Origin: Escherichia coli
GTDB taxonomy: Bacteria > Pseudomonadota > Gammaproteobacteria > Enterobacterales > Enterobacteriaceae
DNA length: 64,000 nucleotides
Assembly (NCBI RefSeq): GCF_024700885.2
Contig: NZ_CP117016.1
Direction: 5' to 3' (one strand)
In this document: positions 3,718-47,042 of the stretch, piece after piece
Position numbering within the stretch: the first letter of the stretch is position 1
How the letters are laid out: each line of letters starts with the position of its first letter
Translations under genes and position numbers: made by a program
The notes under the pieces: generated by a model
Databases searched by the model: none
The model's input: only the letters and a program-made list of their open reading frames with translations
Told to the model about the DNA's origin: nothing

Positions 3718-5763
3718 TTATACGTTCAAGCCACGATGTTGCAGCATCGGCATAATCTGAGGTGCCTTACCGCGCCATTGTCGATACAGGCGTTCCAGAT
3801 CTTCGCTGTTACCTCTGGAAAGAATCGCCTCGCGAAAACGCCGCCCATTTTCACGCGTTAATCCGCCCTGCTCAACAAACCACTGGTAACCATCATCGGC
3901 CAACATTTGCGTCCACAGATAAGCGTAATAACCTGCGGCATATCCGCCACCAAAAATATGGGCGAAATAACTGCTGCGATAGCGTGGCGGTATAGCAGGA
4001 AGATCCATATTTTCCGCCACCAGCGCCCGCAATTCGAAATCATCGACATCCTGCATTGCTTCGTTTTCTTCCAGGCAATGCCAGCGCATATCGAGAAGTG
4101 CGGCGCTAAGCAGTTCGCTCATCTCATACCCTTTATTGAACAGGCTGGCATTACGCATTTTCTGTTGCAGTTCATCAGGCATTGCTGCCCCGCTCTGATA
4201 ATGCCGGGCGTAGCGAGCGAATACCTGCGGATGCGTTGCCCAGTGTTCGTTGATTTGCGACGGAAATTCGACAAAATCACGCGGCGTGTTGGTGCCGGAA
4301 AGCGTGGCATAACGCTGGCGGGCAAAGAGGCCGTGTAGCGTATGACCAAATTCATGGAATAAGGTTATGACATCATCCCAGAGTAACAACGCAGGCTCAC
4401 CGGCAGCGGGTTTCTGATAATTGCAGACGTTATAAATTACCGGATGCGTTTCATTCAGCGTTGATTGCTCAACAAAATTGCCCATCCATGCACCGCCGCT
4501 TTTTGAATCACGGGCGAAGAAATCACCGTAAAATAACGCCAGCCCCACGCCATTATGATCAAAAATTTCCCATACACGAACGTCAGGATGGTAGACAGGA
4601 ATATCAAAACGTTCGACAAACTTAATACCGAAGAGCTGATTCGCAGTCCAGAATACGCCTTCATTCAACACCGTGTTTAATTCGAAATAAGGCTTGAGCT
4701 GCGCTTCATCGAGATCGAATTTCTCACGTCTTACCTGCTCGGCATAAAATGCCCAGTCCCACGGCTGCGCGCTAAACCCGCCCTGCTGCTTATCGATAAC
4801 CGCCTGTATGGAGGCTAATTCATCGCTCGCACGTTGACGCGCCGCTGGAACAATTTCCCGCATAAAGTTGAGTGCTGCTTCTGGCGTTTTTGCCATCTGA
4901 TCGGCGATTTTCCATGCGGCATAATGAGGGAAACCAAGCAGTTTCGCCTGCTGCGCGCGGATCTCCACCAGACGTTGAATGATAGCGCGGGTATCATTGG
5001 CATCATTTTTTTCCGCTCGCGTCCAGCCCGCAGTGAACAGTTTTTCACGCGTCGCACGATCGCGCATTTCGGCAAGCGCCGGTTGTTGGGTGGTATTCAG
5101 CAGCGGAATCAGCCATTTGTTATCCAGACCTTTCTCGCGAGCCGCCTCTGCCGCCAGCGCAATCTCTTGCTCACTTATTCCTGCCAGCTGCGCGATATCG
5201 TTCACAACCAGACCGCCGGATTTATTTGCTGCCAGTAACCGCTGGTTAAACTGGCTGGTCAGGGTCGCAGCTTCTGTATTCAGTACTTTTAATTTTGCTT
5301 TATCAGCTTGCGCAAGTTTGGCTCCGGCAAGGACAAAACGTTGATGAATGACCTCCACCAGGCGGATGGATTCACTATCAAGCCCCAGGGATTCTCGGCG
5401 CTGCCAGACAGCATCTACCCGCGCGAATAATTCACCGTTCAGATAGATATCATTAGCCAGTTCCGCCAGTTCAGCGGAAAACTGTTCATCAAGACGCTGT
5501 AATTCATCATTGGTATGCGCCGCAGTCATCGCAAAAAAGACGCTGGTAACGCGGGTAAGTAATTCTCCGCTTTGTTCCAGTGCCAGAATAGTATTGTTGA
5601 AATCAGGCGTTTGCGGGTTAAGCGCGATGGCAGTAATTTCTGCCCGCTTTTGCAGCATTCCCTCATCGAATGCCGGGCGATAGTGATGATTGGAAATTTG
5701 ATCAAAATGGGGAGCCAGATACGGCAGTGTGCTTTGCACAAGGAAAGGATTCATTGTTGTCAT
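3718..5763 (-). CDS. dcp: dipeptidyl carboxypeptidase II (M3 peptidase)
   Basis: HEFGH zinc motif in translation; start trimmed to MTTMNPF (681 aa) within the 703-aa track ORF. Confidence 0.92.
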   Translation of the reverse strand: MTTMNPFLVQSTLPYLAPHFDQISNHHYRPAFDEGMLQKRAEITAIALNPQTPDFNNTILALEQSGELLTRVTSVFFAMTAAHTNDELQRLDEQFSAELAELANDIYLNGELFARVDAVWQRRESLGLDSESIRLVEVIHQRFVLAGAKLAQADKAKLKVLNTEAATLTSQFNQRLLAANKSGGLVVNDIAQLAGISEQEIALAAEAAREKGLDNKWLIPLLNTTQQPALAEMRDRATREKLFTAGWTRAEKNDANDTRAIIQRLVEIRAQQAKLLGFPHYAAWKIADQMAKTPEAALNFMREIVPAARQRASDELASIQAVIDKQQGGFSAQPWDWAFYAEQVRREKFDLDEAQLKPYFELNTVLNEGVFWTANQLFGIKFVERFDIPVYHPDVRVWEIFDHNGVGLALFYGDFFARDSKSGGAWMGNFVEQSTLNETHPVIYNVCNYQKPAAGEPALLLWDDVITLFHEFGHTLHGLFARQRYATLSGTNTPRDFVEFPSQINEHWATHPQVFARYARHYQSGAAMPDELQQKMRNASLFNKGYEMSELLSAALLDMRWHCLEENEAMQDVDDFELRALVAENMDLPAIPPRYRSSYFAHIFGGGYAAGYYAYLWTQMLADDGYQWFVEQGGLTRENGRRFREAILSRGNSEDLERLYRQWRGKAPQIMPMLQHRGLNV

Positions 5764-22419: not shown

Positions 22420-23034
22420 ATGACCCATTTTTCACAGCAAGATAATTTTTCTGTTGCGGCGCGCGTGTTGGGCGCGCTGTTTTATTACGCTCCGGAGAGT
22501 GCGGAAGCCGCACCTCTGGTTGCGGTACTCACCAGTGACGGCTGGGAAACTCAGTGGCCTCTACCAGAAGCGTCATTAGCGCCGCTGGTGACGGCTTTTC
22601 AGGCACAGAGTGAAGAGACTCGCGCCCAGGCCTGGCAGCGTTTGTTTGTCGGCCCGTGGGCTCTGCCGTCTCCGCCGTGGGGGTCGGTCTGGCTGGATCG
22701 CGAATCTGTGCTGTTTGGCGATTCAACATTGGCACTTCGTCAATGGATGCGCGAGAAAGGCATTCAGTTCGAAATGCAGCAAAACGAACCGGAAGATCAT
22801 TTTGGTTCACTGCTGTTGATGGCTGCGTGGTTGGCGGAGAATGGTCGCCAGACAGAATGCGAAGAATTGCTGGCATGGCACCTTTTTCCGTGGTCAACAC
22901 GTTTTCTTGACGTTTTTATCGAAAAAGCAGAACACCCTTTCTACCGTGCACTGGGTGAACTGGCTCGCTTAACGCTGGCGCAATGGCAATCACAACTGTT
23001 AATTCCTGTCGCGGTTAAACCACTCTTTCGATAG
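22420..23034 (+). CDS. dmsD: Tat proofreading chaperone DmsD
   Basis: 204-aa ORF from MTHFSQQ; neighbourhood. Confidence 0.88.
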   Translation: MTHFSQQDNFSVAARVLGALFYYAPESAEAAPLVAVLTSDGWETQWPLPEASLAPLVTAFQAQSEETRAQAWQRLFVGPWALPSPPWGSVWLDRESVLFGDSTLALRQWMREKGIQFEMQQNEPEDHFGSLLLMAAWLAENGRQTECEELLAWHLFPWSTRFLDVFIEKAEHPFYRALGELARLTLAQWQSQLLIPVAVKPLFR

Positions 23035-40871: not shown

Positions 40872-42626
40872 TTATAAAAACGCGTCGCACTCGTCTGTTG
40901 TTATTGCGTTAGTCTGCGTTACTCCCTTAACTTTCCGCGTAATATATTCATGTCCGTAAACTTTCGCGGCTGGCTTCATAGCCTTGCCAAAGTCATTTAC
41001 GTTTAGCGGTTTGCTCCTGCCTGCGTACGCCATAAACGCCAGATAGACGCGGTAAAGGCTGTTTCTGGTCGTGTACTTCACTGAATCGCCACCGCCGCCC
41101 ATCATCAGGCCGCGTGCTTCCTCCAGAAAATTCAGGAACTGGCAAAACTCAATAACCGGATCCGTCTGTTGCTTTATTGCCAGAGCTTCATCACCGTCAC
41201 GCTGTTCCAGTAGTAAAGCCCGTGCCTTCTCAGGGTCGGTAAAGTTCGCCAGCAATCGGCGGATAATGACAGGGATTTCAGCCGCGATCTTTTCCGGTAG
41301 CTCCCTGTCTTTTTCGGCCTCACTGACGATATTGTCGAAACGGAAAATCACGCGACGACGTGCCACACCTCCGGCCCGTTCGGTGAATATCATCGGGTTA
41401 TTGTTGGTCGCCAGCACCACCGCCCTGATTACCGCCGTGAAACGCTTTTCGTATTTCGGGTTAATTTCCACGGGGTCACCGCCCGTGATTTTCTTGATGC
41501 CCGTTCCTTCGCCTGTATATTTCGGCTGGTCAGCCAGGACGATAAGACGACTCCCGACAACCTGCGCACGTCCACCAGCATCATCAAGCGATGTCATTTC
41601 AGCGCTTACCGTGTTCTGTTTCCCTGCCAGAAGGCTGGCTATGTGTGTGAATGTACTTTTACCGCTCCCGCCGTCTCCGGTGGCCTCAATAAACATCTGC
41701 CAGTCGTACCGGTTCGCCATAATCATGTACAGCGCGGCACATATACGCATCATCTTGCGCGGGTCTTTTCCGGCTGCGTGCTCAAGCCATTTATGAAAGT
41801 TTGGCGCGTTATCGCGGATGTTCTCCCCTGGTGCTGGTGGCGTGTACTCAATGCCGTTGTGCGTGGTGATCCAGTTCTCCGGCGTGTGCGGGGAAAATTC
41901 CCCCGTTTTCAGGTCAAGCGCACCATTGGCGAACGGCAACAAATCGCCGGACGGCTCGCCCATTGGTTCGGCAATAACTTTTAACGCTTCCACGGCGTTA
42001 TTGATTACGCGCTTGCTGAAAGTGGCCCTGTGCTCTGAATAGATCGCCACCATTTCGCGGCTAAGTTCCATTGTGCTGACCGGACACCATACCCCGCCGC
42101 GCCATACGTGAACGATTTCACTTTCAGGATGTACGCAAACGCCATCAAAGCGATCGGCAAGCAGTTGCGCGCGCTCACTGTCCGCCATCTGCGAAAGTTG
42201 CGCCTTTTGCTTTACCGGAAGCTCAATGACCAGACCATCAGAAAGATTCTGGCGCTCACGGGCCAGATATTCGCGCCAGTTCTCCACCTTCTGACCGTGC
42301 ATACCATCAGGGTAAAAATTTGCATCCTGTACGCCTGCCGCCGCCAGCTTCTGACCAATCGCCTTTATCATTACTGGCGCAAGATATCCGGCCCTGAATA
42401 TGCGCACGGATTTTCTGCCTTCCGGCACAATTTGCAGCTTATCCAGTTCGGATAACTGCTGCTCCCCAAGCCACACAGGAGGCTCATTATCTCCGGCCAT
42501 ACGCGCGTCATGTTCCTGCCATTGTTTTGCGTGTGACCAGGCATCACTACCCGCAAAAATAATGACTTCTGTTTCTTTGTGTTTTATGCCGCGTGACTGC
42601 TGTTTTACGTTCGGTGCCAGTTTCAT
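40872..42626 (-). CDS. replication protein: primase/helicase (P4-alpha / D5-like)
   Basis: 584-aa ORF with Walker A GDGGSGKST. Confidence 0.8.
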   Translation of the reverse strand: MKLAPNVKQQSRGIKHKETEVIIFAGSDAWSHAKQWQEHDARMAGDNEPPVWLGEQQLSELDKLQIVPEGRKSVRIFRAGYLAPVMIKAIGQKLAAAGVQDANFYPDGMHGQKVENWREYLARERQNLSDGLVIELPVKQKAQLSQMADSERAQLLADRFDGVCVHPESEIVHVWRGGVWCPVSTMELSREMVAIYSEHRATFSKRVINNAVEALKVIAEPMGEPSGDLLPFANGALDLKTGEFSPHTPENWITTHNGIEYTPPAPGENIRDNAPNFHKWLEHAAGKDPRKMMRICAALYMIMANRYDWQMFIEATGDGGSGKSTFTHIASLLAGKQNTVSAEMTSLDDAGGRAQVVGSRLIVLADQPKYTGEGTGIKKITGGDPVEINPKYEKRFTAVIRAVVLATNNNPMIFTERAGGVARRRVIFRFDNIVSEAEKDRELPEKIAAEIPVIIRRLLANFTDPEKARALLLEQRDGDEALAIKQQTDPVIEFCQFLNFLEEARGLMMGGGGDSVKYTTRNSLYRVYLAFMAYAGRSKPLNVNDFGKAMKPAAKVYGHEYITRKVKGVTQTNAITTDECDAFL

Positions 42627-43962: not shown

Positions 43963-44182
43963 GTACCCCTCCGCATTTTTTTTCGTTAGAAATAAGCGTT
44001 CTTCTTTCCTGTTCATCGCTCAGGAATACGCAGACCTCACCGCTAAGGCGTTTAAGTAAGCCGATGATTGCCCCTGATTCGCTGTCGGTCATCATGCCAG
44101 GGTAATCCTCTGCCAGTGCGCAAATAACTTCGATTTGGTGGGCGCGTTCTGCTGCCTGTTGTAGTGTGATTTCCTGGCTCAT
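43952..44182 (-). CDS. hypothetical protein
   Basis: 76-aa ORF. Confidence 0.5.
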   Translation of the reverse strand: MSQEITLQQAAERAHQIEVICALAEDYPGMMTDSESGAIIGLLKRLSGEVCVFLSDEQERRTLISNEKKCGGVHVQ

Positions 44183-44379
44183 AAGCCTACCCCCTGACGA
44201 ATACGGGCAGCAAATACCATCACGCAGCCAGCCGGAGATTGCTGGCGTGCTTCCTGTTCGCTGGTGGCCTCAATGGTAATCACGCGCGGTTGTGCCGTGC
44301 TCAGGGCGATAAAACGCCAGATGTATTTATTCAGGTTGTGCGAGTCCCGCCCTTGCGGGTGTGTGGTATGATTTCTCAT
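44179..44379 (-). CDS. hypothetical protein (possible first gene of early operon)
   Basis: 66 codons from the last Met of the long track ORF; GAGGT RBS 4 nt upstream; stop overlaps the next start. Confidence 0.35.
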   Translation of the reverse strand: MRNHTTHPQGRDSHNLNKYIWRFIALSTAQPRVITIEATSEQEARQQSPAGCVMVFAARIRQGVGL

Positions 44380-44475
44380 AGCTACCTCGATACTTTCGCT
44401 ATCGTTGGTGGTTAGAAGCCCGGTTAGTGTTAGCGCACTGCCGGGTTTCGTCGTTTCTGCACCTTGCGCCAACAA

Positions 44476-44549
44476 GGTGTTGAACACCAATTTAAACCCA
44501 GGTGTTAAACACGTCAAGTGTTGAACACTTATTTTTTTTCCTGCATACT
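44476..44549. promoter_or_regulatory. divergent control region with three 13-bp palindromic operators and a sigma70-like promoter
   Basis: ggtgttgaacacc (44476-44488), ggtgttaaacacg (44501-44513), agtgttgaacact (44517-44529); ttgaac -35 and catact -10 with 17-bp spacer. Confidence 0.6.
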
Positions 44550-44578
44550 GCATTTGTTTTTTATGAGGGGTACACCAC

Positions 44579-44758
44579 ATGGCGACAAAAGCGGTAAACG
44601 CAAAATCACAAACCGTTGCGGCAAGGGTTCCGCATGAAGTTATGAACAATGTTGAGGCGGTAAAAATGCCTGGCGAAAGTACGGGGCAATTTGTTACTGC
44701 GGCATTAAAACGAGAAGTTGAATATCGCCAGCGGCGCAAGGCCAAAGAACCAGAGTAA
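44579..44758 (+). CDS. small DNA-binding protein, probable ribbon-helix-helix regulator
   Basis: Hand-translated 59-aa ORF MATKAVNAKSQTVAARVPHEVMNNVEAVKMPGESTGQFVTAALKREVEYRQRRKAKEPE; gagggg RBS 8 nt upstream. Confidence 0.55.
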   Translation: MATKAVNAKSQTVAARVPHEVMNNVEAVKMPGESTGQFVTAALKREVEYRQRRKAKEPE

Positions 44759-45084
44759 TCACCATCAGCGCCGTGGTGTAAGGTATTACGGCGCATTGCT
44801 ATGCAGGACAACACAATGACCGATAAAGAATTGACCAAAACATTATCACCGGCACGGAAAAGACGGCGCAGAAAGATAGAGCATGAATCAGAAAGATTCG
44901 CGCCATGTGCTTTTGCCCTTGAGCAATTCCTTAAAGAGTACAGGGAAAAGCGCTCATTGCAGGTATGGCAACGAACTGAACCAGACTGATTGCATTGCCC
45001 ACCAGCCTGATAACGGCTATCATCCCCGTGCTTATGTTTGGGATCACACACACAAACGGCGCAGCGGGTTATCTGTTCAGAAAG

Positions 45085-45112
45085 GCGGCTCCATTTCGGG
45101 GCCGCTTTTTTT
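45085..45112 (+). terminator. intrinsic terminator
   Basis: Hairpin gcggctcc…ggggccgc followed by T7. Confidence 0.6.
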
Positions 45113-45258
45113 ATACCTGAAAAACCCCAATTTTGTTGTTTTTCAGTTTCACCAGGGCGAACGAATCCCCGCCCACGTTCTGGCGTATATTCAATCTTCA
45201 TGGTTATAGCTCTGTGTTCAGATGATTGATGTGTGGCGGCTGCGTGCCGCCAGCGTGA

Positions 45259-45528
45259 TTAATGAACTGCCTTGCAGCTATCCTTCCAGGCCAGAACCTC
45301 GGATAAAGACCAGCCAACGGAACGACCGCCAAGTTTACGACGTGATGGGAATTGTCCGGCCTTTTCCAGGCGGTAGCGACACGTACGGCTAAGGCCGGTT
45401 AGTTTTTCGCATTCTTTTTCACGTATAAACCGATCAGTGCTTAACACTATTGCCCCCCTTTCGTTTCTTAAAGAGTCATCAGGTGTCTTATTGTGTCGTA
45501 TTGTTCCCGCTAGAGTGATGAATGGCAA
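45259..45528 (-). CDS. alpA: AlpA-family transcriptional regulator / excisionase-like
   Basis: C-terminal …LTGLSRTCRYRLEKAGQFPSRRKLGGRSVGW… HTH typical of AlpA; true start probably internal. Confidence 0.7.
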   Translation of the reverse strand: MPFITLAGTIRHNKTPDDSLRNERGAIVLSTDRFIREKECEKLTGLSRTCRYRLEKAGQFPSRRKLGGRSVGWSLSEVLAWKDSCKAVH

Positions 45529-45812: not shown

Positions 45813-47042
45813 TTATTTTCTTCTGGCTACGGGTAGCGTGGTTACGTTTTCATGTGTTCCCGCCAGTATCCCTAACCGCTCCGTCCACATATCCAGCGCA
45901 TTGCGTTTCGCATCCAGATAACGGGAATGATTATAAACTCGCTGCATTCCTGGCATCTGGTGGCCTGTAAGCTGCTCCACGACATGCGGATCAACGCCTA
46001 AATCGTTCAGCATGGTTGTAAAGGTGCGCCGGATGTCATGCAGTGACCAGTGAGGGTGATTAAGCCTCCTGTACGCTAATCTTCCATACTGCGATACGCT
46101 GGCCTCCTGTTTCACTTCCCCCAGCAATAAGCCCGTGTGCCTGTTCTGCTCCACCAGCTGCGTGACGAACGGCAGGATCGCTTCCGGTATGGGCCGGAAT
46201 ATTGCGACCTTCGTTTTGCTGTGCTCCTTCGGAACGGTCCATAGCATTTCCGTAAAATCCCACTCCCCGATCTCCGATAACCTCAGTTCTACCGTTCTGG
46301 CTCCGAAGACAATCAGGAGGCGGATTAACGCGACGTAGTAAGGGGAGAATATTTTTTTGTCCAGTGCCTGCAATAATTCGCCAAGTTCTTTGTTACTTAA
46401 GACACGTTCGCTTATATCCGGTTTTTTCCCAACGTCCGCAACGTTCAGATCGTCCAGAACGTTGCTGATTGCATAGCGCCGCCTACGGCAGAACTTAAGC
46501 GCCTGTTTGCACGCCTGTAGCACGAATCCGGCAGTAACAGGCGTTCGCTTTGCCACCTGGTCAAAACAGGCCAGCCAGTGCCGTAGCTCGCATTTATCCA
46601 GCGGCATAGCACCAATCTGCTGTATTACGTGATTATTAAGTCGCCTTTTCAGGGCGATATAATCCACGCGGTTTTCCTTTACGTAATACTCAAGCCAGTA
46701 GGTGAGCGCATCGCCAACCGTTACGGGCTTTAACGCTTCCTGTACGGTGTAATTCATCTCATGACGTGGATTTTTCCCCTCAGCCAGCCATGTGCGACAC
46801 TGTGCGGCTTTTTCCCTGGCTGCTTTCAGGCTCAGATCAGGATAACTTCCCAGCTTAATGCGTTCGGGTCGTGTCTCCCTTCCCGTTCCGGCCCTGTATG
46901 TGAAATACCAGGTCAATTTCCCTGATGTTAAATATTTCACGCTCAGGTTTCCGCCATCACTATAAAACGTGTTTTTCTCCGCTGGCTTACCATGAAGTTT
47001 CCTTAGCAAGGTATCGCTCAGTTTGTTCATTGCTCTGCTCAC
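45813..47042 (-). CDS. int: tyrosine recombinase / integrase
   Basis: 409 aa with C-terminal catalytic region (HDIRRT…RVYNHSRY); adjacent to attR. Confidence 0.9.
   Translation of the reverse strand: MSRAMNKLSDTLLRKLHGKPAEKNTFYSDGGNLSVKYLTSGKLTWYFTYRAGTGRETRPERIKLGSYPDLSLKAAREKAAQCRTWLAEGKNPRHEMNYTVQEALKPVTVGDALTYWLEYYVKENRVDYIALKRRLNNHVIQQIGAMPLDKCELRHWLACFDQVAKRTPVTAGFVLQACKQALKFCRRRRYAISNVLDDLNVADVGKKPDISERVLSNKELGELLQALDKKIFSPYYVALIRLLIVFGARTVELRLSEIGEWDFTEMLWTVPKEHSKTKVAIFRPIPEAILPFVTQLVEQNRHTGLLLGEVKQEASVSQYGRLAYRRLNHPHWSLHDIRRTFTTMLNDLGVDPHVVEQLTGHQMPGMQRVYNHSRYLDAKRNALDMWTERLGILAGTHENVTTLPVARRK

Follow-up and report, generated by a model that had tools for sequence, protein, structure and literature searches.

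Three short sites and the small gene beside them, at 44,476–44,758 of an Escherichia coli contig (NZ_CP117016.1, assembly GCF_024700885.2), form a candidate genetic switch. The sites are very probably the operators of the 59-aa ribbon-helix-helix (RHH) protein that the gene encodes, as judged from the covariation of protein and site classes over 89 related loci in which the neighbouring genes reassort. The best explanation of the whole arrangement, and one that we consider probable, is that this protein represses the replication operon of a satellite and limits its own synthesis, with an antisense RNA as an additional lock and AlpA-driven read-through as the bypass. All coordinates refer to the window, the whole stretch of 64,000 nucleotides that was analysed.

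The original prediction described three near-identical palindromes here, and exact matching confirmed them. The 64-kb window holds exactly three copies of the core GTGTTNAACAC, at 44,477, 44,502 and 44,518, all inside 52 bp. Dinucleotide-preserving shuffles of the window contained 0.08 copies on average and one at most, and none of 100 reached three. The three sites are thus non-random in the window. O1 (GGTGTTGAACACC, 44,476–44,488) is centred on the predicted +1 (about 44,482) of a leftward promoter, P_L; O2 (GGTGTTAAACACG, 44,501–44,513) lies in the spacer of P_L and abuts its −35; and O3 (AGTGTTGAACACT, 44,517–44,529) holds the −35 (TTGAAC) of P_R, the promoter predicted for the RHH gene. 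The palindromes are 6-1-6 and perfect in O1 and O3, and 5-1-5 in O2. The centre-to-centre distances, 25 bp from O1 to O2 and 16 bp from O2 to O3, are out of helical phase, so that cooperative binding is not obvious. Copies with one mismatch at 22,890 and 45,437, the latter inside alpA, were within chance expectation and were rejected.

P_L (44,489–44,517, minus strand) is a sigma-70-like sequence consisting of TTGACG (44,517–44,512), a 17-bp spacer and TAAATT (44,494–44,489), and precedes the operon that runs from an Icd-like gene to the primase gene. P_R (44,521–44,549, plus strand) has TTGAAC (44,521–44,526) and CATACT (44,544–44,549) separated by 17 bp, with a run of eight T residues at 44,532–44,539 within the spacer. 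Sixteen representative loci were scored for the same features. The P_L geometry reached 7–10 of 12 in most of them, with differing −10 sequences, and was not recovered in L082 and L083; the usual pattern was TTGAC(G/A), 16–18 bp and TAnnnT, with the spacer and the +1 each carrying a site. Related loci hold a −35/−10 pair where P_R lies. The −10 hexamer of P_R was kept in position in most representative loci (TATACT, TATATT, TACAAT or CATACT), and the predicted −35 was weak in most classes. The divergent switch that had been proposed is therefore borne out as a predicted pair of promoters carrying the sites, and the site geometry on P_L and P_R fits repression.

Comparison of classes modified the description of the sites in two respects. 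O1–O3 are palindromic as proposed, but palindromy is not a defining property: other classes use asymmetric 11-mers in either orientation, in arrangements such as direct-direct-direct or direct-inverted-inverted, and the outer GTG...CAC alone is constant, giving the general form GTG-N5/6-CAC. Likewise, the third palindrome does overlap a −35 in this window, but this is special to class A; in most representative loci of the other classes the presumed autoregulatory site lies just after the −10 of P_R. That site has been lost in E. coli class A loci, this window included, and a counterpart of O3 is found in class A loci only. A site matching the position of O1 (−102 from the RHH ATG) is kept in all classes, and a site at −77 followed by (A/G)CGTCAA, the counterpart of O2, in nearly all.

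The RHH gene (44,579–44,758, plus strand) has GAGGGG 8 nt 5′ of its ATG. Its product was placed in the YlcI/YnfO family by NCBIfam model NF041551 (59.7 bits against a cut-off of 30, E 2.1e-16, model positions 1–42 of 42), and PGAP uses this name in strains PCN033 and CFT073. Structure prediction, which had been suggested as a check on the fold, was run with AlphaFold. A Foldseek search with the monomer gave no useful information, as a single subunit leaves the strand without its partner, and the dimer was therefore modelled as a tethered pair with an artificial Gly/Ser linker. The modelled dimer has the beta-alpha-alpha topology of the RHH superfamily, with the N-terminal strands of the two subunits paired. 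The family alignment also contains the G-x-S/T/N turn at the start of helix B, with G32, E33 and S34 invariant in 30 members. The models and their fold matches thus support the RHH-like assignment made earlier, and a 59-aa protein with an RHH fold and without an HTH agrees with the earlier statement that this is not an Stl-type repressor. A Pfam scan of the protein gave no family at E 0.001 or better and no RHH model, and PDB sequence searches with the single sequence and the family profile gave no meaningful match to a solved structure. Alignment to Arc with hhalign scored 5% probability, though the register was as expected, with residues 12, 14 and 16 opposite the DNA-contacting Q9, N11 and R13 of Arc.

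The link between protein and sites comes from the 89 related loci, which represent at least six genera. Twelve strand motifs map to nine site classes without exception, and residues 11–15 of the strand co-vary one-to-one with the central 5–6 bp of the sites. The pairs are SQT[VIL]AARV with GTGTTGAACAC, SQSVTARI with GTGTAAGACAC, SKKLEARV with GTGTCAGCCAC (class C), SKKIDVRV with GTGTCAGACAC, SKR[IF]D[AV]RV with GTGTCGGACAC, SQMTTVRI with GTGTATTTCAC, SQSLKSRV with GTGTGGTCCAC, SQALKARV with GTGTGGCCCAC (the pair found in EcCICFT073) and SAQKKIRF with GTGTACCCCCAC. Changes of nearly a single residue track single base changes: K12R with A to G, D14E with A to C, and S12A with T to C. The class C 11-mer is identical in Escherichia, Proteus and Xenorhabdus, and the spacers differ. 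The neighbouring genes reassort freely. One DNA cluster of the Icd-like gene accompanies classes A, B, C, E and H, one cluster of gene 2 (the gene that follows the RHH gene) accompanies classes A, B, C and H, and AlpA at 95% identity or above is found alongside both class A and class C. A natural chimera, with the N-terminal half of class B and the C-terminal half of class A, has class B sites. This reassortment, together with the chimera, indicates that the pairing of strand and site is not hitch-hiking.

Gene 2 (44,801–44,989, plus strand; 62 aa, or 57 aa from an ATG at 44,816) is co-oriented with the RHH gene. Its product has a basic N-terminus and a conserved motif, ERFAPCAFALExFLKEYR, and matches phrog_21027, to which PHROGs assigns no function; no match to Pfam, PADLOC or toxin families was found. 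It is absent from L082, L083, L085 and L089 (Xenorhabdus, Proteus, L085 and vB_KppS-Ant), which keep the RHH gene and its sites. On the other side, the Icd-like gene (44,179–44,379, minus strand; 66 aa from an ATG at 44,379) is the first gene of the P_L operon, and was identified by NCBIfam NF033153 (E 1.4e-19) and by PGAP. The C-terminus of its product matches phrog_6196, labelled 'transcriptional repressor'. In L086, a KilA-N gene replaces it as the first gene, and the RHH gene and sites are kept. With PADLOC, neither the RHH protein nor gene 2 nor the Icd-like protein matched a defence system. Genes of the Bro-N/antirepressor type occur in the matching zone of related loci, a point of likeness to immI of P22, and the cassette of approximately 300 bp is flanked by Chi sites.

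Two layers absent from the original prediction overlap this region. The first is a conserved candidate cis-antisense RNA of approximately 75 nt (44,380–44,455, plus strand). It would form two hairpins, with a U-rich tail after the second, and would pair with the P_L leader and with the Shine-Dalgarno sequence and start of the Icd-like gene. The MFE z-score of the region is −4.45 on the plus strand against −1.35 on the minus strand, and covariation and a strand test also support the RNA. An extended −10, TGgTATGAT (44,364–44,372, plus strand), is placed to start it at about 44,379/44,380, and a TG-n-TAnnnT element is kept there in diverged loci. The second is an open frame of 340 codons (44,179–45,201, minus strand) that starts 57 nt after alpA and has the Icd-like gene as its 3′ end. 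On the way it passes antisense over gene 2, the RHH gene and the operators. Nearly all related loci keep this frame uninterrupted, whereas the other two frames meet a stop within 3–36 codons in nearly every locus; no Pfam family matched the 340-aa product. The sites had been described as lying between the leftward operon and the rightward gene, but the interval is not purely intergenic, as the leftward frame crosses it. Upstream of this frame and co-oriented with it is alpA (45,259–45,447, minus strand), which encodes an HTH_17/AlpA-type regulator. Terminator-like matches between alpA and the switch were no commoner than in shuffles and were rejected.

The element that carries the switch was identified as a capsid-forming PICI (cf-PICI), a phage-parasitic island, from the PGAP annotation of the identical region in PCN033, using published criteria (10.1101/2022.09.08.507074). 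It has the int-alpA-primase backbone and its own capsid, protease, portal, connector, HNH, TerS and TerL genes, and lacks tail and lysis genes. In PCN033 it is inserted in tqsA, beside pntAB. DNA similar to the 1.1-kb stretch around the module was present in 1,679 of 5,426 complete E. coli genomes, and the class A cassette itself in at least 486. The prototype EcCICFT073 holds the RHH module between alpA and the Icd-like gene. A tblastn search of 50,697 phage records for YlcI/YnfO homologues gave a single match, in vB_KppS-Ant, which is 16.5 kb long and labelled an 'induced prophage' but is a satellite too. It follows that the family does not serve phages in general as a repressor.

According to the literature AlpA is helper-induced, and published experiments show it to be an essential activator of EcCICFT073 and EcCIEDL933 (PMC6092414; 10.1101/2022.09.08.507074). 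A reporter downstream of alpA in EcCICFT073 is expressed at a low level without AlpA, and over-expression of AlpA alone induces EcCICFT073 (PMC6092414). A repressor is thus not formally required, and a 2018 paper called the Gram-negative PICI repressor "unclear". Uncontrolled expression of the PICI replication operon is harmful (PMC6092414). The literature that we searched on YlcI/YnfO, PICI ribbon-helix-helix proteins and the EcCICFT073 repressor did not describe a function for the 59-aa protein. Within that literature, the RHH protein and its three sites are the best candidate for the repressor said to be missing for cf-PICIs. That it is the master repressor, as was originally proposed, is something we infer, since AlpA is the proven activator.

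Judged from the sequence comparisons, the likely function of the protein is repression of the replication operon combined with autoregulation. In the integrated island it would be made from its own promoter, P_R, and an RHH dimer would read the 11–13-bp GTG-N5-CAC sites through its N-terminal beta-ribbon. Binding to O1, over the +1, and to O2, in the spacer, would keep P_L and the Icd-like/primase operon silent, while binding to O3, which is itself the −35 of P_R, would limit synthesis of the protein. A constitutive antisense RNA covering the ribosome-binding site of the Icd-like gene could act as a second lock. At induction, the helper phage would turn on alpA, with no need for cleavage of the RHH protein. 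The AlpA-activated leftward transcript would then cross gene 2, the RHH gene and the operators in antisense through the long frame, overriding repression of P_L and interfering with RHH expression. We infer this bypass by analogy with eta of P4.

Several other explanations were weighed against this one. Some other regulator might occupy the sites, whether AlpA, the Icd-like protein, gene 2 or a factor of the host, with the 59-aa protein a mere neighbour. AlpA is the only regulator of these islands shown by experiment (PMC6092414), the Icd-like protein has its match to a 'transcriptional repressor', and covariation of strand and site is by itself no proof of contact. However, the site class is independent of the types of the Icd-like gene, gene 2 and AlpA and was never parted from the RHH strand motif; the sites of the chimera track the N-terminal half of the RHH protein; L086 retains RHH gene and sites with a KilA-N gene in place of the Icd-like gene; and the Xenorhabdus, Proteus, L085 and vB_KppS-Ant loci do so without gene 2. 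AlpA, the Icd-like product and gene 2 were therefore rejected as binders, and we regard this explanation in general as improbable. Small RHH proteins that control their own promoters through repeats are common among type II antitoxins, and gene 2 lies 3′ of the RHH gene in the same orientation, so the protein could be the antitoxin of an addiction cassette, with the sites serving autoregulation only. An assignment of this kind is very improbable: two of the three sites are on the divergent P_L (spacer and +1) and not on P_R, and gene 2 has no match among toxin families, reassorts independently of the RHH class and is missing in several loci where RHH gene and sites are retained, so it does not behave as an obligately linked toxin.

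In immI of P22 the RHH protein Arc is a late shut-off factor, and the 59-aa protein might similarly bind its sites but act late or transiently, in the manner of Cro or Arc, with quiescence resulting from the lack of AlpA and from the antisense RNA. The weak predicted −35 of P_R in most classes would suit this role, and the AlpA-activation model works without a repressor (PMC6092414). Against a purely late role, P_L is near-consensus (9–10 of 12) and stands before an operon that is harmful if uncontrolled, from which it follows that some silencer is needed in the prophage-like state. The RHH gene also faces away from the induced operon, and an induced alpA transcript would oppose rather than drive it. 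We consider this account unlikely. Short repeats in either orientation are also found at origins and at cos/pac sites, and the cassette is flanked by Chi, so the sites could be structural DNA and not operators, serving as origin iterons or in packaging or recombination. But the PICI origin maps downstream of pri-rep (PMC6092414), and the sites are in fixed register with the −35 and −10 of two promoters and co-vary with the DNA-binding fold of a protein whose gene lies 50 bp away, which leaves a structural role scarcely credible. Repression of P_L by the RHH protein, with autoregulation, is therefore the reading that we retain.

The proposed switch resembles immI of P22 (Mnt/Arc, divergent Pant/Pmnt and sar antisense RNA) in having a small RHH gene divergent from the controlled operon, operators that overlap close divergent promoters (here predicted) and a short antisense RNA against the ribosome-binding site of the downstream gene. 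It differs in that the protein has no significant sequence similarity to Arc and lacks the C-terminal tetramerisation domain of Mnt, that there are three to four sites of single-dimer size rather than one operator of 17–21 bp, and that an Icd-like gene, as in P1 immI, takes the place of arc-ant as the first gene under control, in a satellite rather than a phage. Omega of pSM19035, CopG and ParG are likewise RHH dimers on short direct or inverted repeats arrayed over promoters. Here, however, a partition or copy-control context is lacking, and sites of 11–12 bp with invariant GTG/CAC ends are 16–45 bp apart, whereas Omega binds contiguous 7-bp heptads.

The immunity region of satellite P4 has PLE inside eta, as well as Kil and CI RNA/seqA, with late read-through from PLL via vis (PMC10111431). 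As there, the replication-operon promoter lies inside a long open frame following an alpA/vis homologue, a truncated C-terminal product (Kil in P4, Icd-like here) starts downstream of that promoter, and an RNA layer is combined with induction by upstream read-through, which is proposed here. P4 differs in using a sense-strand processed CI RNA and no protein repressor, in place of an antisense RNA and a protein/operator pair. Rfam models C4 and IsrK gave no hit at E 1 or better in 27,000–48,000 of the window or in 11 related loci, and an immunity RNA of the P4/P1 type was rejected. SymR (RF01809), whose target is SymE, resembles the candidate RNA: a cis-antisense RNA of approximately 75 nt that begins beside a start codon, with two hairpins, covering the 5′ UTR and Shine-Dalgarno sequence of a small, potentially toxic gene, although the target here is the Icd-like gene. 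The match was 33.3 bits (E 0.006; 34.4 bits in L052 and 32.9 in L025), below the gathering threshold of 61, and the RNA is therefore not a SymR family member by the Rfam criterion.

Stl/Rpr of the Gram-positive PICIs (SaPIs) share with the RHH protein a location adjoining int, divergence from the excision/replication operon and a proposed role in quiescence, but Stl proteins are large HTH repressors relieved by helper-phage proteins. The K-12 proteins YlcI (DLP12) and YnfO (Qin), which are DUF3950 proteins, belong to the same family, NF041551, and both the ..IRFP...I..I.. strand/helix motif and the NFSAWV helix of YlcI recur in the class I satellite protein. The ylcI gene, by contrast, adjoins the terminase gene nohD and is not part of a divergent early control region; the DNA upstream of ylcI shows no evident GTG-N5-CAC array, and the literature searched reports no function for YlcI or YnfO of K-12.

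Gram-negative PICIs and cf-PICIs are widespread and carry virulence and defence genes between species, and their control has been described as activation by AlpA. A candidate repressor with operators mapped to the base, present in the experimental prototype EcCICFT073, makes a further level of control directly testable. The nine protein/site classes form a natural recognition table for the RHH beta-ribbon and may define immunity groups among co-resident satellites. For the YlcI/YnfO branch of the E. coli 'y-ome', the analysis offers a first hypothesis of function. More tentatively, and as a possibility that we would not yet call probable, the RHH protein and its GTG-N5-CAC sites may supply the immunity repressor that Gram-negative PICIs and cf-PICIs in general have seemed to lack, encoded in at least nine interchangeable classes by a cassette of approximately 300 bp that is swapped between conserved Chi-flanked arms and lies antisense within an eta-like read-through frame, such that the state with RHH on and P_L off and the AlpA-driven transcript are mutually exclusive. 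If so, a helper-phage inducer might act on the RHH protein, instead of or besides the alpA promoter, and these satellites would be controlled by a convergent-transcription switch with protein, antisense-RNA and translated-spacer layers.

The window is E. coli chromosome and carries an island of about 16 kb between tqsA fragments, adjoining pntAB, as annotated by PGAP in strain PCN033, where the region is 100% identical. The same annotation gives int (45813-47042, minus strand), alpA (45259-45447, minus strand) and, downstream of a run of small leftward genes, a primase (40872-42626) followed by ssb and PerC; the island also encodes a major capsid protein, protease, portal, connectors, HNH, TerS and TerL. 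By its sequence this gene set matches a capsid-forming phage-inducible chromosomal island (cf-PICI) as defined in 10.1101/2022.09.08.507074. The element lies at about 30.7-47.05 kb, inserted in tqsA (ydgG), which is left as two pseudogene fragments. The Rfam int-alpA RNA motif, RF02996, exceeded its gathering threshold in L014 (6015-6082) and L047 (5853-5921), both related loci, and was not found by Rfam in the window's island.

Three 13-bp palindromic operators had been predicted upstream of the gene for a 59-aa candidate ribbon-helix-helix (RHH) protein (44579-44758, plus strand), and these were located in the window sequence: O1 at 44476-44488 (GGTGTTGAACACC), O2 at 44501-44513 (GGTGTTAAACACG) and O3 at 44517-44529 (AGTGTTGAACACT). 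Their core, GTGTTNAACAC, has three copies in the 64 kb, none of them outside the switch, against 0.08 copies predicted by shuffles; a search allowing one mismatch gave no more additional matches than chance. The predicted promoter of the leftward Icd-like/primase operon, P_L, was placed by a consensus scan and is of sigma-70 type (minus strand; TTGACG at 44517-44512, 17 bp, TAAATT at 44494-44489). That of the RHH gene, P_R, reads TTGAAC (44521-44526), 17 bp, CATACT (44544-44549) on the plus strand, then GAGGGG and the ATG at 44579. The two -35 hexamers stand back to back with a 3-bp gap. O2 fills the P_L spacer beside the -35, the predicted P_L start at about 44482 is the centre of O1, and TTGAAC falls within O3, as had been proposed for the third palindrome.

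Promoters were compared in 16 representative loci spanning nine site classes, and the positions of P_L and P_R are kept in most of them despite differing -10 sequences. P_L is TTGAC(G/A), 16-18 bp, then TAAATT, TACATT, TAATAT, TAACAT or TATAGT, and the P_R -10 is TATACT, TATATT, TACAAT or CATACT. A run of eight T in the P_R spacer (44532-44539) is T7 in L008, L010 and L040, which shortens the spacer from 17 to 16 and frameshifts a long antisense open reading frame; the run could be a slippage-prone site.

The 59-aa product scores above the curated cut-off of NCBIfam NF041551 (YlcI/YnfO family; 59.7 bits versus 30), and has no Pfam match and no sequence relative among solved structures. Its 74 cluster representatives come from Escherichia, Salmonella, Klebsiella, Pectobacterium, Serratia, Rouxiella, Proteus and Xenorhabdus, with M1-A2-T3, N7, K9, S10, R16, H19, G32-E33-S34, Q37, F38, E46 and R50 invariant. 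An AlphaFold monomer shows two helices and a disordered N-terminus, and a Foldseek search with it was uninformative. Because RHH strands form solely in dimers, two copies tethered by a Gly/Ser linker were modelled with a matching alignment. The model contains strand 10-18, helix 19-28 and helix 35-55, each twice, with pLDDT 88-91, in keeping with the RHH-like fold of the original prediction. The assignment is thus supported by a modelled fold, not by a sequence profile. A weak hhalign match to Arc (5% probability) aligns R16-V17-P18 on Arc R13-W14-P15, and in this register residues 12, 14 and 16 are therefore the counterparts of the base-contacting Q9, N11 and R13 of Arc.

To relate protein to site, 80 loci from IMG/VR, five from genomes and assemblies, the prototype EcCICFT073 and one phage-database match were compared. 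Sites at -102 and -77 relative to the ATG occur in every locus, with the -77 site directly against the P_L -35; most loci have a third at -32, directly after the P_R -10. The operator after the P_R -10 is lost in the window (44550-44562) and the other class A loci of E. coli, CATACTGCATTTG replacing CATACTGTTGAACACC; four sites are retained in class A loci of Klebsiella type (L048, L049 and L067, compared at -32). The outer GTG...CAC of the site is constant, and nine classes are distinguished by the central 5-6 bp, each tied to its own strand motif at residues 10-17 with no exceptions in 89 loci. The window belongs to class A, which pairs SQT[VIL]AARV with GTGTTGAACAC; the others are B, SQSVTARI with GTGTAAGACAC; C, SKKLEARV with GTGTCAGCCAC; D, SKKIDVRV with GTGTCAGACAC; E, SKR[IF]D[AV]RV with GTGTCGGACAC; F, SQMTTVRI with GTGTATTTCAC; G, SQSLKSRV with GTGTGGTCCAC; H, SQALKARV with GTGTGGCCCAC; and I, SAQKKIRF with GTGTACCCCCAC. 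Near-single residue differences accompany single base changes: K12R with A to G (class D versus E), D14E with A to C (D versus C) and S12A with T to C (G versus H). The class C 11-mer is identical in E. coli, Proteus and Xenorhabdus, where the spacers differ and the proteins are just 51-58% identical to the query. Class E also occurs in a Salmonella locus with KilA-N, not Icd-like, as first leftward gene. The palindromic character first noticed holds for the 13-bp sites of the window and does not extend to most other classes, which are non-palindromic and occur in either orientation. As with the omega repressor, such sites fit one pseudo-symmetric RHH dimer per site.

The sites might be bound by another product of the island, namely AlpA, the Icd-like protein or the product of gene 2, the open reading frame that follows the RHH gene (44801-44989, plus strand; 62 aa, or 57 aa from ATG 44816). 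This is contradicted by reassortment of the site class against the types of all three. When the Icd-like segment is clustered at 85% nucleotide identity, one cluster holds classes A, B, C, E and H; one gene-2 cluster holds A, B, C and H; and class A occurs with at least 10 Icd-like and more than 10 gene-2 clusters. AlpA at least 95% identical to the window's is found with class A (nine loci) and class C (four loci). In a natural chimera, P0027, a class B N-terminal half is joined to the window's C-terminal half, and the sites are of class B. The reassortment and the chimera therefore place the specificity determinant in the N-terminal half of the RHH protein, and the covariation is more than linkage. 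The RHH gene and its sites act as a cassette of about 300 bp swapped between conserved arms.

The N-terminus of the gene 2 product is very basic, and ERFAPCAFALExFLKEYR is a motif conserved in it. Its PHROGs family is phrog_21027 (unknown function), and Pfam, NCBIfam and PADLOC give no match. That gene 2 forms a toxin-antitoxin pair with the RHH protein is contradicted by the positions of the sites and by the loci that lack it (Xenorhabdus, Proteus, L085 and vB_KppS-Ant). The sites are unlikely to be repeats of an origin or packaging region, since they keep to promoter registers. It is possible that the RHH protein is a late shut-off factor like Cro or Arc.

Chi octamers (GCTGGTGG) lie on either side of the cassette at 44260-44267 (plus strand) and 44999-45006 (minus strand), conserved positions -319 and +420 from the ATG, both oriented for activity on RecBCD travelling outward from the cassette. 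A minus-strand Chi is found at +150 to +1000 in 64 of 79 distinct loci, mostly at +420 to +440, and the 16-kb island has 14 Chi sites (32.2-46.2 kb region). Chi may be related to the cassette-like reassortment of specificity classes. L020 carries two different YlcI/YnfO paralogues; the second (3741-3920) follows 740 bp downstream and has a site class (GTGTATTTCAC), an antisense-RNA-like leader and a long open reading frame of its own, which suggests tandem or nested satellites.

A conserved candidate antisense RNA of about 75 nt lies within 44364-44460 (plus strand, promoter included). It gives a SymR match below the Rfam gathering score (44380-44452, plus strand; 33.3 bits, E 0.006), and two diverged loci show such a match in the corresponding position. 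An extended -10, TGgTATGAT (44364-44372, plus strand), is placed for a start at 44379/44380, adjoining the Icd-like ATG, and the 3′ end is a long terminator-like hairpin followed by a U-rich tail. Both hairpins are retained in 20 diverse loci, with double changes at seven pairs and 97.8% of cells paired; none of 500 shuffles reached the observed covariation score. The signal is specific to the plus strand: 54 G.U pairs become A.C mismatches on the minus strand (84.8% paired), and the minimum free energy is -35.1 kcal/mol (z -4.45) for the plus strand versus -20.5 (z -1.35) for the minus strand. The RNA is complementary to the P_L leader, the Shine-Dalgarno sequence and the Icd-like start, and should therefore block Icd-like translation.

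A frame of 340 codons (44179-45201, minus strand) starts 57 nt after alpA and has the Icd-like gene as its last part, running antisense to gene 2, the RHH gene, P_R and the operators and also spanning P_L. Nearly all related loci, Klebsiella-type, Proteus and Xenorhabdus ones among them, keep it uninterrupted for about 200-550 codons (exceptions: the three T7-for-T8 loci, L049 and L086); the remaining two frames meet a stop within 3-36 codons in almost all loci. No Pfam domain was found in the long frame, and PGAP names parts of it Icd-like, BRO-N or Ash. Since gene 2 and the RHH gene clearly show conservation as plus-strand proteins, the simplest reading is that the frame may be an eta-like translated spacer. 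Translation of alpA-promoter transcripts through it would prevent polarity and let them reach the replication operon. The P4 eta ORF contains the constitutive promoter PLE, and Kil is a truncated Eta; full-length eta is translated solely from the upstream late promoter, coupled to an alpA homologue, and its translation blocks termination (Mageeney et al. 2023, PMC10111431). The 'Bro zone' after int-alpA is able to hold immunity RNAs (PMC10111431). The window's frame resembles eta, with its internal promoter and truncated product, and the embedding of an RHH switch in an antisense read-through frame is unusual.

In the quiescent state, RHH dimers made from P_R would occupy O1 and O2 and block P_L, so that neither Icd-like product nor primase is made; occupancy of O3 would restrain P_R, and leaky P_L transcripts would be mopped up by the antisense RNA. 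On induction the helper turns on alpA, as published, and the alpA transcript, translated via the long frame, would traverse the cassette, reach the replication operon irrespective of P_L repression and counter the convergent P_R transcript. We infer this read-through step from the P4 precedent and the conserved frame. The RHH protein very probably binds the predicted sites, and it probably represses P_L and regulates its own synthesis; that it is the main island-silencing factor, with switching by read-through, is a tentative proposal. The closest complete analogue is P22 immI, with divergent Mnt, operators on Pant/Pmnt and sar antisense RNA, here combined with a layout like P4 eta/PLE; an Icd-like gene is shared with P1 immI.

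At least 486 of 5,426 complete E. coli genomes have the class A cassette, in every case on the chromosome, and 1,679 genomes have DNA similar to the wider 1.1-kb stretch around the module. The single homologue found in the phage database belongs to another such satellite, recorded as a 16.5-kb 'induced prophage' (L089; LR881103.1, Escherichia phage vB_KppS-Ant), with 12-bp class I sites. Its RHH gene is unannotated beneath an annotated 324-aa antisense ORF, and the encoded protein falls between the satellite family and K-12 YlcI. In EcCICFT073, the prototype Gram-negative PICI (L088, NC_004431.1 1377930-1388700), int and alpA are followed, on the opposite strand, by a 57-aa gene and a 'YlcI/YnfO family protein', after which come the genes from Icd-like to primase; the element is of class H, with two copies of GTGTGGCCCAC and one of CTGTCCCCCAC, and the literature searched makes no mention of its RHH module.

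The global repressor in Gram-negative PICIs has been called 'unclear' (Fillol-Salom et al. 2018, PMC6092414). The helper phage turns on alpA by an inducer reported as unknown, and EcCICFT073 is induced by AlpA over-expression alone (PMC6092414); the cf-PICI prototype EcCIEDL933 likewise requires alpA (10.1101/2022.09.08.507074). The RHH protein belongs to an uncharacterised family, and no repressor is described for such elements in the searchable literature. RHH repressors with promoter-overlapping operators are a well-known kind, and the module makes a question of PICI biology directly testable.
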